NCBI GenBank assembly: GCA_964016885.1
Contig: OZ024753.1
Location: forward strand, 20,522,001 to 20,586,000
Direction of reading: 5' to 3'
Origin: Eledone cirrhosa
Lineage: Eukaryota
DNA length: 64,000 nucleotides
Positions 35,141 through 53,403 of the stretch are shown piece by piece. A program made the position numbers and the translations under genes. The notes under the pieces were generated by a model. It had not been told where the DNA came from. It saw only the letters and a list, made by a program, of their open reading frames with translations, and did not search any database. How positions within the stretch are numbered: the stretch's first letter is position 1; each line of letters starts with the position of its first letter.

Positions 35141-35347
35141 ATAGTATTAAGTATACTATTTATGGTTATGCAAATACAAAAACCTGTTGTAGTTATATAT
35201 ATTTTTAAAAACCCTAAATAGTGGTAGGCAGTAATATATTACTACCTTATTACCAGTAAGTTAATTAGCTCAATGTAATAACATCAGATGATTTACAGAG
35301 CAGTTATATGAATAATAAGAATCAAAGAACTGTTCAAAACATTTTTA

Positions 35348-35394
35348 TGCTGACAACTGTTTCCACCAAACCGAGGTTTGGTTTCTTCGGAGCA
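35348..35394 (-). ncRNA. Hammerhead-like motif, family F (CCGAAGA core variant, GUC site)
   Basis: Minus strand: tgct-CCGAAGA-a-accaaacc-tc-ggtttggt-g-GAAA-cagttg-TC-agca. Confidence 0.6.
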
Positions 35395-35852
35395 ATTTAT
35401 TATTGAATGAAAATGTCGCAGTGCATGAAATCCATATCATCGCTTCGCTACGCATTTCCAATATGTTTTATGCTTACATTATTTTTAATGCTTATATTAT
35501 TTCTCCACGCACAGGCTATAACAATCATATAAAGAATTCATTACCAAATCATCCCCCTTAACACTCTTGATCACCTGTTTAAGTGCTTCTATTACACGTA
35601 ACTCTCTGCCACACTATATAAACAAGACGCACGTGCTTGCCACACGTATAACTATTGAACTCTATAACCGCTTAATTTCATGTTGTATTTTAAGCTGTAT
35701 TTTTGATTGTATCTTTTAATATGAATGTAATCTCTAAATGTGTACTGCCACACTAAATGCTGTAATGAATGTTGACCCACAATATTTGCATATGTATCTG
35801 TATGTCTCTTGGGTGAAAAGGAGGTCATATAAGTTTTCATTCAATAATAAAT

Positions 35853-35899
35853 TGCTCCGAAGAATCCAAACCTCGGTTTGGAGGAAACAGTTGTAAGCA
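35853..35899 (+). ncRNA. Hammerhead-like motif, family F (CCGAAGA core variant, GUA site)
   Basis: tgct-CCGAAGA-a-tccaaacc-tc-ggtttgga-g-GAAA-cagttg-TA-agca. Confidence 0.6.
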
Positions 35900-35942
35900 T
35901 AAAAAATGTTTTAAACAGTTCTTCGATTCTTATTATTCATAT

Positions 35943-36664
35943 ATATACATATATGTATATATGTATATATATATATATATATACATATATATATATATAT
36001 ATGTATATATGTATATATATACATATACATATATATATATATATACATATATGTATATATCTATATATATATATATACATATATATATATATATATATAT
36101 ATATATATATGTATATATGTATATATATATATATACATATATATATATATATATATATATATATGTATATATGTAAATATATATATACATATATATATAT
36201 ATATATATGTATATATGTATATATATATATACATATATATATATATGTATATATATATATATACATATATATATATATGTATATATGTATATATATATAT
36301 ACATATATACACATATATATATATATATGTATATATGTATATATATATATATATACATATATATATATATATACATATATATATATATGTATATATGTAT
36401 ATATATATATATGTATATATGTATATATATATATACATATATATATATAGGTATATATGTATAAATATATATATATACATATATATATATATATATATGT
36501 ATATATGTATATATATATATATATATATGTATATATATATATACATATATATATATATATATGTATATATGTATATATATATATACATATATATATATAT
36601 ATGTATATATATATATATATACATATATACATATATATATATATATATATATATATATATATAT
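35943..36664. repeat. Imperfect (TA)n microsatellite
   Basis: Direct inspection. Confidence 0.95.
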
Positions 36665-36706
36665 GTAATATATAAGAACAATTGATGGTTAAAAGAGTTC
36701 CATGTA

Positions 36707-36773
36707 TTTTATTATGCGCATTTCAAAAACAAATATCATCATGCAATAATATTTGTGTTTTCATCAGATAAAA
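36707..36773 (-). ncRNA. Type I hammerhead ribozyme, family A
   Basis: Minus strand: ttttat-CTGATGA-long stem II (aaacacaaatattattgcatgatgatatttgttttt)-GAAA-tgcgca-TA-ataaaa. Confidence 0.85.
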
Positions 36774-49387: not shown

Positions 49388-49932
49388 ATATATATATATA
49401 TATATATATATAAATATATATATGTATATATATATATGTATATATATATATATATATATATATATATATATATGTATATATGTATATATATATATATATA
49501 TATATGTATATATATATATATATATAAGTATGTATATATATATATATATATATATATATATATGTATATATGTATATATATATATGTATATATATATTAT
49601 ATATATATATATATGTATATATGTATATATATATATGTATATATATATATATATATATATATATATGTATATATGTATATATATATATGTATATATATAT
49701 ATATATATATATATATATGTATATATGTATATATATATATATATATATGTATATATGTATATATATATGTATATATGTATATATATATATGTATATATAT
49801 ATATATATGTATATATGTATATATATATACATATATGTATATATATATGTATATATATATGTATATATGTATATATATATATATATATATATATATATAT
49901 ATATATATATATATGTATATATATATATATAT
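49388..49932. repeat. Imperfect (TA)n microsatellite
   Basis: Direct inspection. Confidence 0.95.
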
Positions 49933-50005
49933 GTTGTTATACTTTGGGAGGGTCATGTTTCCAATAAGAAACACACGCACCAGTTGCTTTCACTTCAATT
50001 TATTA

Positions 50006-50823
50006 TCTATATATATAAAACTGTGGTTGTCTGTCTGTCTATCGATTTTTGGCACACATCTCCTCTTAGAATCTCTCACGGAATTGCACCGAAATTGCTA
50101 TACTTGTACATTGAGCCCTAGCGAAGACATCGGAAAAAAAAATTTCAAATTGACCCACCCTATGTGACGAAATCGAATATAATGTATCGATTTTTGAGCG
50201 TAAGTTATCAGTTATTTCCCTTTGTTCTGTTTACATTGAGCGACTTACGTAAAAAATTACGCTGGCTTTCTCAGCGTTTAAAATGACATTAACACAATAC
50301 ACGAACAGACAGTTGTCGAGCCAGCAAAATATTGACCTGCAAAATTCATCAGTTCCAACACTAAGCTTCCGTTTTGCTTCAGTTCCATTTAAAAGCATTT
50401 TAAAACAATATTTTTACTTGAAAACAAGTCTATTTAAAGACTACGTAAAACAAGCAAATATTTCAGGCGTGCAGACAGACAGTCGTGCAGAGAGGTGATA
50501 TAGGCGTGCAGACAGACATAACTGATAATTTGGTTACGCTAATGTTTTTCTCTGCGTTACAGTGTTTACATTTTCGATCTTTGTTAATAAATAACCAGTG
50601 CAGTTTTTATCCCCAGCATCCTCTTTTGTTATAACATTCGGGTTATCGTTATGTTTTCTTAACTTCATAAGGCATATTGTTGGTTGAGGGAATATTAATC
50701 GAAAACACCACATGCAAGTCTGCACAGTAGAGACTACAGTTTTTAAGCCAAGAAAGAAACTTAACATTGTAACTTTAACACAGCTACTGAGCGACCCCGA
50801 GCAACGCCGGGCTTTACTGCTAG
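50006..50823 (+). mobile_element. Non-autonomous Helitron
   Basis: Starts TCTATATATATAAAA after A; (TGTC)n near the 5' end; GC hairpin cccgagcaacgccggg (50796-50811); ends CTAG before T; no TSD. Confidence 0.85.
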
Positions 50824-50918
50824 TATATTTATAAACTTATAAATCTACAAATTTACAAACTTATAAATTTCTGGTTGGTTGGTTGGTTCCACAACCAGAT
50901 AGTTGTTTATATATATAT

Positions 50919-50963
50919 AGTCATAGTCCTTTCGTCACACACTCTGTGACCTCTTCAGTGACT
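50919..50963 (-). ncRNA. Type I hammerhead ribozyme, family B
   Basis: Minus strand: agtca-CTGAAGA-g-gtcaca-gagtg-tgtgac-GAAA-ggac-TA-tgact. Confidence 0.75.
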
Positions 50964-51270
50964 GGGGATTCCTTTCTTCGTTTCTGTGCCTTTCCTTTCT
51001 TCTATCCTACGCCATTTTGTTTCTGTGTGTGTGTTGTGTGCTCAGTTTGCGCATGCGCCACATCCGGGTGTCTGTGTGTGTTTGTGTTCATTTTTCTATT
51101 TTTATATTTATATTTTTCTATTTGTTTATTTATTTATTTATTTATTGTTGGTTGGTTGTTTGTTCTATGTGTGTGTGTGTTTTCATTTTGTCCTGTGTGT
51201 GTTTTCATTTTGTGTGTGTTTTCAATTGTAAGTTGTTTGTTCTATGTGTGTGTGTGTTTTCATTTTGTCC

Positions 51271-52410
51271 TTAATTGTAAGTTGTGATGTTGCTGTTCCA
51301 CTCATATTTTCTATTTAATTTTGGTTTTAATTCTTTTATGCTTACTGCCTCTGTAATTTGCCTAAACATTGCGTCTCTTCTGTGTGTGGATTCTATTTTT
51401 ATTTCTATGCTCTCTAATCTACCCCTGTGTTCTATCTTAGCATGTTGGTAGAGCACAGATGATTCTTTATTATCTTGGAGGTCTCGCCAGTGTTCATTTA
51501 TTCGTTCCCCTATACTACGAGCTGTCTCACCTATGTACACTATATTTTTGTTTCTACATTGTCCTTCAGTACATCTTATGCTATACACTACATTTCTAGT
51601 TTTACAGTTAATATGGGGGCTTATTTTACAGGTTATACATTTCTTATCTATACATGAGGGTCTTTGGAACGGGTATGTCTTGCTAATAAGTGTTTTTACG
51701 GAGGTACCAGGTCTTTCTACTATCTTAATATTGAGATTATGTTTATTTAGGGCCCTTCTAAATTTGTAGGCTAGTTCGCCTCTAGGGGTTGTATTGATGA
51801 ACATTACACTCTGGTATTTATTGCTATCATACCATGAGTTTATTCTATTGGCCTTGTTCCTAGTTCTTTCTATTCTATTCCAAAATTTGCTCCTATACAA
51901 GGGGCAGGTCCCATTTATGTCATTATTTACCATTTTTTCCCATTTGGTTCTGGCTCCTTTATACACTCTGATTCTATCTCTCTGATTGTAGCCAGAGAAC
52001 TGCATACGGTGGATGAAGTGTTGTATGTGTCTCTCTAGTTGTTCGGGGTTGCACATGCGGCACACATTTCTCATCACCCGTACCAAATCCGCAATCAGTA
52101 TGTTGATTTTGGTATGGTCCGAAATGGCCGAGTTTCGGTGGATCAGATGTTTGGAAGTCATGGGCTGGCATAATGGGAATGGAGGATTTGTTTTTGGTTG
52201 TTAATGGTATCTAACCAGAGCTCTGTGTCTAGTACAGGTAATCGATGGTTGGGGTGTCTACTTGGGTAGTCTATAGTAACTCTAATGCTCTGGTGGATGG
52301 AGTTTGCTATTTGCTGGATGCTTTCCATTGTGTTTTTCTCTAGTTCCTGACTGTTCTTTAGTGGGGGTGTCATAACTACGATGTTTATATCATCTACGTA
52401 GCGGGAGTAC
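51271..52410 (-). pseudogene. PLE RT (from YVDD) plus GIY-YIG endonuclease, frameshift near 52160
   Basis: YSRYVDDI, LPVLDTELW; then CIDKKCITC, VVYSIRC..VYIGETARSIGERINEH, RQITEAVSI..LNRKYEW. Confidence 0.9.
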
Positions 52411-53403
52411 ATGATGGTAAATTTTTCATTTAGACAGAGATTGCAAATTTTGGATAGAGAACTGTTCAAGCATAAAGACGCAGAAGAAACCTTCTTCCAA
52501 AAGATGCTATATTTAATATTTTTGTCTTTCAAGGACCATATGAGCTCTGAGAGAGCCGTGTTGATTCTTTTAAGTTTGTATTTAAAAGACGAATGATGGT
52601 TATAAAGACGAGCTTTAAAAGAGGTGGAAGTGGAGCCAAAATAGGTGAAGGAATTAGATTATTCATCCTCAATTCATTATTTTTTTCTCCCTTTCATCTA
52701 ACAATATATCCTTACTTAAATTACCTGTTATTCTTTTTAATAATACATATCAACATTTTCTTTCCATCGCACATATTATTAAACCCTTAATATCATTCTT
52801 AATACATATTAACTTTTTCTTTTCATCGCACATATTATTAAACCCTCAATATACAAACCTTAACTTTACATTATTTTTCTCTTCGTTAATTTTCAAATTC
52901 TTTTAATTTATACATTATCTTCCAACGGTTTTCAACCTCTCTATGTAAAACAATATGTCTTTCTCAGTTATAAAAGCTATCTCTCTCTCTCTCTCTATCA
53001 CCCATCTCTCCTCCTATCTCATCCTTCCTCATTATACTCATCCCTCTCCACCTTCACTCTCATCTCCTTTTTTTCATCCTTTCCACCACCCCTCTAGATA
53101 AAATATTTTTTCCCAATATCACACATCAATCTAAAACTACTTCTCATATGTTGATTTAAAACTGCACTATCCACAAGTGTTTTTTAACCTTCATATCATG
53201 TCTTCCTGTTTTATCTGATGAAAACACAAATATTATTGCATGATGATATTTGTTTTTGAAATGCGCATAATAAAATACATGGAACTCTTTTAACCATCTT
53301 TTGTTCTTATATATTACATATACTCCAGTCCTACAAACTGTAGAGTGCTTCTTATCCGATATCTGCATTGCTTTATTGTACTACAATAAAACTCACCTCC
53401 TAC
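52411..53403. mobile_element. Naiad family A fragment: ~245 bp of GIY-YIG coding sequence (minus, 52411-52655) plus inverted pLTR (plus, ~52654-53403)
   Basis: 52411-52655 matches ~37880-38124; 52654-53320 matches the reverse complement of the family A 3' region; 53320-53403 matches the reverse complement of 39173-39257. Confidence 0.85.
53209..53275 (+). ncRNA. Type I hammerhead ribozyme, family A
   Basis: ttttat-CTGATGA-stem II-GAAA-tgcgca-TA-ataaaa. Confidence 0.85.

Follow-up and report, generated by a model that had tools for sequence, protein, structure and literature searches.

Two fixed end sites, each followed by a conserved hairpin, in Hydra-clade Penelope-like elements of Eledone cirrhosa

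A characteristic of the Penelope-like elements described here is that their copies end at two fixed sites, mostly one of each per insertion, and that both sites lie a few bases before a hairpin. We consider it likely, with a probability of about 0.65, that these hairpins position the reverse transcriptase (RT) so that both nicked strands of the (TA)n target prime. Site 1 lies at +35 to +57 from the predicted hammerhead cut and site 2 is the end of a tail; the hairpins behind them are called H1 and H2. The tail, the inverted arm, and the two start sites are already published, and a search of the published literature found no description of the hairpin pair. An initial annotation of a 64,000-nucleotide stretch of the genome (the window) had described the short sense 3' ends, the tails, and the first hairpin; it missed two points, namely that the tail belongs to the proximal 5' UTR and that site 2 has a hairpin of its own.

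The four families, A, C, D, and F, are high-copy elements of the Hydra clade inserted in (TA)n, as judged from motifs read by eye, with units of ~3.9 kb in the present genome. A single ORF contains RT motifs and then a C-terminal GIY-YIG-type endonuclease (YECK..YFG / YSCT..YVG, read by eye in L063 and L270); the open frames span 821 aa in L063 (family A) and 855 aa in L270 (family F). Pfam profiles gave no match on five window ORF fragments of families A, C, and F. The RW and DKT motifs are RLRW/DKT in A, RIRWR/DKT in C, RVRWR/DKT in F, and RMRWK/DKT in D (an RWK-like motif is present, and DKT replaces DKG). A CxCx5C linker is found in all four families, and CxxC and CxH around a conserved E and N are seen in A, C, and the window F copy. 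The pLTR carries a hammerhead motif, with core and stems I-III at 11 window ends; both hammerheads and cleavage sites are predictions, called from the core motif and stems alone. Family F has the core variant CCGA (CCGAAGA at 35857). Rfam at gathering score returned no hammerhead match in the window, and at E <=10, among the matches listed (150 of 279), just chance matches of the miRNA type and the like, driven by microsatellites. At most sampled loci the ends pass into TA repeats, and such (TA)n targets mask target-site duplications. The copies in the window are as follows.

35141..35411, minus strand: F copy 1, tailed arm; hammerhead core 35390, predicted cut after 35352, H1 35301-35268; ends at site 2 in (TA)n
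35407..35943, plus strand: F copy 1, short-ended arm; core 35857, predicted cut after 35895; ends at site 1
36666..38795, minus strand: A copy 2, 5'-truncated; predicted cut after 36713; short end at site 1; no inverted arm seen
39173..40125, minus strand: A copy 1, tailed arm; H1 39254-39230, predicted cut after 39305; ends at site 2
40128..42593, plus strand: A copy 1, long arm; RT-endonuclease ORF, 3' part (stop 41425), then 3' UTR, hammerhead core 42492, predicted cut after 42546; ends at site 1
42613..42975, minus strand: D, tailed arm; H1 42674-42654, predicted cut after 42720; ends at site 2
44099..44458, plus strand: D, short-ended arm (portion matching the other arm); hammerhead core 44373, predicted cut after 44418; ends at site 1; interior 42976-44098 unoriented
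44922..47451, minus strand: C, long arm; broken ORF 3' part 47481-46392, hammerhead core 45021, predicted cut after 44972; ends at site 1
47456..48245, plus strand: C, tailed arm; predicted cut after 48104, H1 48161-48180; ends at site 2
52411..52655, minus strand: A copy 3, opposite arm; an ORF piece remains, interrupted by another Penelope-like element
52655..53403, plus strand: A copy 3, tailed arm; predicted cut after 53269, H1 53322-53346; ends at site 2
58403..59377, minus strand: F copy 2, tailed arm; predicted cut after 58625, H1 58574-58541; a sixth tail, outside 35141..53403
59382..62500, plus strand: F copy 2, long arm; broken ORF; 3' end including the hammerhead missing

The geometry originally read from these copies holds. 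Short sense 3' ends stop at about +47 (A, cut at 42546), +47 (A, minus strand, 36713), +49 (C, minus strand, 44972), +39 (D, 44418), and +47 (F, 35895), and the tails at 39173-39257 and 53320-53403 (A), 48154-48245 (C), 42613-42680 (D), and 35141-35305 (F) each begin with the hairpin that the initial annotation named. Because the opposite arm of A copy 3 is interrupted, the tail at 53320-53403 lacks a partner for comparison. Genome-wide, 120 unselected ends (the first 30 exact-pattern matches per family) comprise 64 at site 1, 52 at site 2, 3 reading through into a tandem unit, and 1 elsewhere; a search with tail-containing DNA is left out of these counts, being biased to tailed copies. The clustering at two sites (116/120) is not chance, in agreement with the earlier view that end positions are non-random. 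The ends of a pair are also not chosen independently (binomial P 8e-21): among 102 head-to-head pairs, 95 carry a single tail and in none are both ends short, which bears out the expectation that one target end joins at site 1 and the other at a downstream site. Two true tails occur in L068 and L107, and L228 is a rearranged pair. Over 29 groups, site 1 shifts together with H1, from +42 to +64 (Spearman 0.75). Site 1 thus tracks the position of the hairpin, as had been proposed, and not the ribozyme; an end distance set from the ribozyme is rejected.

The hairpin is 20-35 nt long; its stem is bulged, RCUC-(3 bp)-loop-(3 bp)-UH-GAGY, and the inner pairs show covariation. Although the search pattern never constrained the inner stem, its three positions pair in 97/86/83% of 29 representatives vs 70/66/49% after shuffling (0/5000 shuffles each); the representatives share ancestry, and the shuffle counts are therefore not probabilities. 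Other bulge sizes fail in this pairing test. In a curated alignment of 20 rows, 134/134 cells are paired with compensatory changes in 4/7 pairs, and RNAalifold recovers the same fold, so that the conservation and covariation anticipated for the hairpin are borne out. The tolerance of G-U pairs points to the sense strand acting as RNA. The motif pattern has 15,906 matches vs 3 in the control, and a second pattern set 4,425 vs 76. Taken alone, H1 is weakly stable (-2.9 to -8 kcal/mol), and minimum-energy folding does not reproduce the 2-nt bulge for H1 of D or for H2 of A, C, and F. H2 lies beyond site 2 in all four families, at +142 (A), +146 (C), +216 to +220 (F), and +115 (D); in D its loop measures 62 nt, and this copy was located via the ORF start. 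By eye, the hairpin can also be read in Hydra-2_Amil, in Hydra-2_Ajap, and at the 5' start of Hydra-1_Ajap; Hydra-1_Crog has a degenerate copy at most and Hydra-1_Obim no clear one.

The tail, 65-165 nt in length, is the proximal 5' UTR: in tandem copies its sequence runs on into the 5' UTR and the ORF. It had been assigned to inverted arms, which does not hold as a rule. The tailed arm is mostly the shorter one in A (9 shorter to 1 longer), F (9:4), and D (4:1), but not in C (8:10), where tails are as common on direct ends, one of the outcomes that the initial annotation had named as refuting its view; near-full-length direct ends carry tails in L063, L072, L212, and L259. Arms within a pair are more alike than arms of different pairs (in C, 0.5 vs 4.4 differences in 115 nt), and both arms of a pair usually derive from one source sequence; gene conversion could be an alternative source of this likeness.

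Based on these observations, insertion may proceed as follows. The GIY-YIG domain would nick both target strands, and each 3'-OH would dock, with little pairing, on a short A/U spacer ~7 nt before a protein-bound hairpin. Both nicked strands would then prime on element RNA, one at each hairpin, both cDNAs would copy upstream through the hammerhead, and their far ends would be joined head to head by repair. Site-2 cDNA usually copies through H1. Which cDNA runs further varies by family, so that the tail comes to lie on either arm. The short palindromes would probably derive from the 5' end of a capped transcript whose start, in family A, is at about -124. For long tailed arms H2 has to be present downstream, which would call for a tandem read-through, a circular RNA, or strand transfer. 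A more detailed version, tentative and at somewhat below even odds, is that docking hairpins, one for each half of an RT dimer, form a 7-nt ruler that lets the two broken target strands begin copying on a single RNA.

It had also been suggested that the cut target anneals to an AU-rich patch. The ends do lie at A/U-rich sites, with an exact match to the target of mostly 0-5 nt, and it could be argued that (TA)n-like patches in the RNA alone set the ends while the hairpin serves translation, stability, or ribozyme folding. This is quite improbable: some site-2 junctions show zero microhomology, better TA patches that lack a hairpin stay unused, among them the longest ones of F (+112 and +149, used by 0/30 ends), and the end-to-hairpin offset, mostly 3-9 nt at both sites (11 for some C site-2 ends; TA microhomology blurs exact junction positions), is kept across unrelated spacers.

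The other alternatives concern where the two arms come from. They could be primed on two RNA molecules in an asymmetric enzyme dimer, one half committed to H1 and the other to H2, with the hairpins acting as in the preferred reading. Divergent arms in four A pairs (8-22 differences), the often longer tailed arm in C, and a dimer predicted for the anole protein (a prediction only; PMC11167929) fit this idea, which we regard as unlikely: most pairs share variants, and of 15 aborted A tail arms, 7 break off at +36 to +46, the expected place of the first primer on a shared RNA (the AT-rich patch could also cause this). Slightly less likely still is a single cDNA primed at site 2, with fold-back or a template switch supplying the second strand and the endonuclease resolving the product by cutting element DNA at site 1, perhaps seeing the hairpin as DNA. 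Craig 2021 (PMC8557442) ascribes the tail to endonuclease-mediated resolution, and the D. virilis tail was needed for endonuclease recognition, as cited in PMC11167929; the near-identical arms and the CATATG palindrome under some junctions agree with it. Simple fold-back, however, makes the tailed arm longer, yet it is the shorter one in 30/46 asymmetric pairs; tiny tailed arms ending before the hammerhead exist; and the constant offset of H2 behind site 2, outside the copied DNA, is left unexplained. Priming of both strands before the two hairpins remains the reading that we prefer.

In L1 twin priming both target strands prime, which gives a 5' inversion; its second site arises from a fortuitous match further upstream, and there is no overlap between the arms. 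Priming by both target strands with 5' inversion is common to L1 and the model preferred here, whereas in the present elements the two sites do not vary and one and the same pLTR region is copied in both arms. An L1-type mechanism, with the second primer upstream and non-overlapping arms, is rejected because the arms share pLTR sequence. Penelope-like RTs are the sister group of telomerase. In telomerase, synthesis is halted by a template boundary element located 5' of the template, and a 3' alignment region pairs with the primer (PMC5855555); as there, RNA structure fixes the copied part of an internal template. In contrast to telomerase, the hairpins here lie 3' of the start sites and there is no repeat addition. 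The likeness to a template boundary initially drawn is therefore dropped: H1 and H2 are both 3' of their sites, and H1 itself is usually crossed.

Among known Penelope-like elements, the Hydra clade is C-terminal EN+, with units generally <3 kb and tails of 30-40 nt (PMC8557442). The elements here share with it the RW, DKT, CxCx5C, CxxC, and CxH motifs, the pLTR hammerhead, the (TA)n target, the inverted 5'-truncated copy, and the one-end tail, and differ in their ~3.9-kb units and 65-165-nt tails; the passages seen of its text and supplement describe no tail hairpin. In vitro, the Poseidon element of Anolis carolinensis (PAc) initiates at two internal sites that delimit the tail, and both strands are extended; either strand used either site, and coupling of the two was not demonstrated (PMC11167929). 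Internal initiation at two tail-bounding sites, extension of both strands, an AT-rich target, and a stem-loop near the start are, on the reading preferred here, shared with PAc, but its sites fall within the ORF, on an AC-rich stem-loop, and lack homology to the primer, and neither paired conserved hairpins nor a one-of-each rule is reported (PMC11167929); the text of its supplements gave no match for stem, tail, or hairpin. Adineta vaga Penelope families resemble the present ones in head-to-head pLTRs, an optional tail, junction palindromes, and an Inr-like sequence in the pLTR; their ends are explained by self-priming on an antisense template (PMC3846280), whereas the arm lengths here favour two primed ends.

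These observations address how Penelope-like RTs pick internal start sites and make one-sided tails. The covarying hairpin, which keeps a constant distance to both start sites and is shared by coral, sea cucumber, and the present genome, indicates precisely which mutations could be tested, and the genome also contains intact ORFs together with their 5' UTR. If the ruler version is true, a docking-hairpin pair would account at once for the Penelope tail and the inverted ends, and the pair would be a portable cis signal writing any upstream RNA into TA microsatellites.

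The window (G000:C13:20522001-20586000, in a 3.0-Gb animal assembly) carries Penelope-like elements crowded between (TA)n tracts from 35 to 62.5 kb. The coordinates of the initial annotation were all borne out on re-checking. A sixth tailed arm and the intact or long reading frames of the four families are as follows.

Window 58403-59377: sixth tailed arm; the ORF beside it is of family F
Family A: frame of 821 aa (locus L063)
Family F: frame of 855 aa (locus L270)
Family C: frame of 672 aa (locus L227)
Family D: frame of 589 aa (locus L362)

RW, DKT and CxCx5C are present in all four frames, and CxxC and CxH also in those of A, C and F. 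These five motifs define the Hydra clade (PMC8557442), to which A, C, D and F are assigned by motif. In the predicted ribozymes of family F (hammerheads at window 35857 and 58663), CCGAAGA replaces CUGAnGA. Other features of the window are listed below.

1-32843: 47-bp tandem satellite, about 700 copies, with higher-order variants
49201-49387: within (TA)n, a 187-nt insert that is bounded by inverted repeats and resembles a tRNA in its interior (by eye)
51271-52658 (minus): another Penelope-like element, represented by its RT-to-GIY-YIG portion (Pfam GIY-YIG, E 4e-4), shares one continuous reading frame with a piece of the family A ORF, through nested insertion or template switch
54886-58299: LINE (AP endonuclease and RT) in two opposed halves flanking a (TA)n tract; its end overlaps a piece also found at 44080-44129, within family D

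Element ends fall at two positions. Exact 25-32-nt patterns matched 14,563 genomic ends of A, 6,258 of C, 3,699 of D and 561 of F, against 0 for the control. Among the first 30 matches per family (120 ends), 64 ends lay at site 1, the short end at +35 to +57 after the predicted hammerhead cut, and 52 at site 2, the tail end; three were tandem read-through and one fell elsewhere. In tandem copies the tail continues into the 5' UTR and then the ORF (the A start codon is near +213); the tail thus belongs to the interior of the RNA, and each end marks an internal start point. Internal start points have been shown in vitro for an anole element, where two start sites bound the tail (PMC11167929). 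At locus L153 (G000:C1:3570815-3571088), two tailed D ends lie tail to tail over a short TA tract.

A hairpin copy lies 3' of each site (H1 and H2, respectively). It begins with RCUC, followed by an inner stem of some 3 pairs, a variable-length loop, a 2-nt 3' bulge (UU, UA or UC) and GAGY, usually followed by RCU. The search patterns fixed the ribozyme end and the outer stem only, never the inner stem, and gave 15,906 matches against 3 for the control, and 4,425 against 76. Among 29 representatives, picked automatically with mis-picks kept in, inner pairs 1-3 were paired in 97, 86 and 83% vs 70, 66 and 49% after shuffling (0/5000 each); pair 4 had no excess (38% vs 41%), and bulges of 0, 1 or 3 nt failed in the same test. 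For the alignment, ten representatives were left out (six were wrongly anchored, three were near-duplicates from a single long-loop family, and one had a long loop) and the window's F copy was added. Conservation with covariation, proposed in the initial annotation as a check, held: among these related rows all 134 of 134 cells are paired, and both sides change at 4 of 7 pairs (A-U/G-C, C-G/U-A, A-U/G-C and G-C/A-U/U-A). Slid controls paired in 25-61%, and RNAalifold returned the same fold; in shuffles of the alignment, whose rows are related, 2 of 5 measures were not significant (160/500, 182/500). Other hammerhead families, at L068 and L222, lack this hairpin; their ends lie close to +75 in (TA)n, and they probably form a separate clade that has a signal of its own.

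Positions of H2, 3' of site 2, relative to the predicted cut
Family A: +142
Family C: +146
Family D: +115, with a 62-nt interior
Family F: +216 to +220

The spacing between junction and hairpin is kept. Given as earliest/latest possible, the modal offsets are 7/4 (A), 7/5 (C), 8/3-5 (D) and 8/3 (F) at site 1 (76/95 scored) and 8/6, 9-11/7-11, 8/8 and 8/5 at site 2 (78/95 scored). As H1 shifts from +42 to +64, site 1 shifts along (103 pairs, 29 groups, Spearman 0.75; within families partly built in by upstream indels). Therefore the distance of about 40-50 nt after the cleavage site, noted earlier and seen again here, is a by-product of H1 placement, and the ribozyme is not the reference. That TA patches alone set the ends fails in family F, whose longest patches (9 nt at +149, 6 nt at +112) held 0/30 ends.

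The two ends are nearly always distributed one to each arm. We examined 66 A loci (covering 97 of the first 100 matches) and, in each of the families C, D and F, 20 regions together with 3-5 search loci, selected mainly for opposed matches, irrespective of tail status. Exactly one tail was present in 96 of 103 adjacent head-to-head pairs; 7 pairs had two tails and no pair had zero. With one duplicated D locus removed, the count is 95/102 (P 8e-21 vs 50%). Four of the seven two-tail pairs are a tailed arm beside an internal tandem pLTR whose outer end is short, one is rearranged and two are genuine double tails. Of 23 short A ends that looked solo, 9 had an inverted tail arm only 16-117 nt long within the stretch checked, beyond which lay the 5' junction of several long copies. 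Aborted tail arms (L116, L101, L093, L089, L088, L115 and others; 32 rows) end near site 1 or the 3' edge of H1, possibly the footprint of a bound protein.

Most likely, both strands of nicked (TA)n would prime on element RNA with little primer pairing, in each case about 7 nt 5' of a hairpin bound by protein, and the two cDNAs would then be joined head to head. Under fold-back with endonuclease resolution, the longer arm should carry the tail in every case; this is contradicted in 30 of 46 asymmetric pairs. Among pairs mapped well enough, with arm lengths more than 200 nt apart, the tail was on the shorter:longer arm in 9:1 (A), 8:10 (C), 4:1 (D) and 9:4 (F), or 30:16 pooled (P 0.054). Restriction of tails to inverted arms, as first proposed, is true of the window and persists as a bias in A, but is not general (C 8:10).

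Arms of one pair resemble each other: differences within vs between pairs were 3.4 vs 7.8 (A, 27 pairs), 0.5 vs 4.4 (C, 20), 1.0 vs 2.3 (D, 20) and 1.0 vs 1.8 (F, 17), with divergent arms in four A pairs. Short A arms ending at -119 to -125 make up 23/42 arms of small pairs. Family A arms (e.g. L062, L073, L076, L079) stop around -124, within a TCATAT context, and often carry a G that the template lacks; in 29 arms ending at -119 to -125 the templated C position reads G 11, T 7, A 6 and C 5, and microhomology explains some. Stops near -124 with G for C are suggestive of a capped transcript start.

By eye, the same hairpin occurs about 43 nt after the ribozyme cut in the published consensus of coral Hydra-2_Amil and about 38 nt after it in that of sea-cucumber Hydra-2_Ajap. 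The Hydra-1_Ajap consensus starts with it, that of Hydra-1_Crog contains a degenerate version, none was seen in the Hydra-1_Obim consensus, and that of Hydra-1_Amil stops short of the position. One-ended tails and inverted truncated copies are already described (PMC3846280, PMC8557442), as are hammerheads in pLTRs with a circular-RNA proposal (PMC4209133); in telomerase, the boundary element is on the 5' side of the template (PMC5855555). A term search of a 2026 retrozyme preprint found no mention of tail or hairpin, and in search listings on Penelope ends and the texts of the papers cited here, mostly openly available literature, we found no description of the hairpin pair or the one-of-each rule. 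Hairpin-marked ends are a genuine property of a clade already known; what is new is that a covarying hairpin pair marks both start sites, and this pair offers a direct test of start-point choice by these enzymes.
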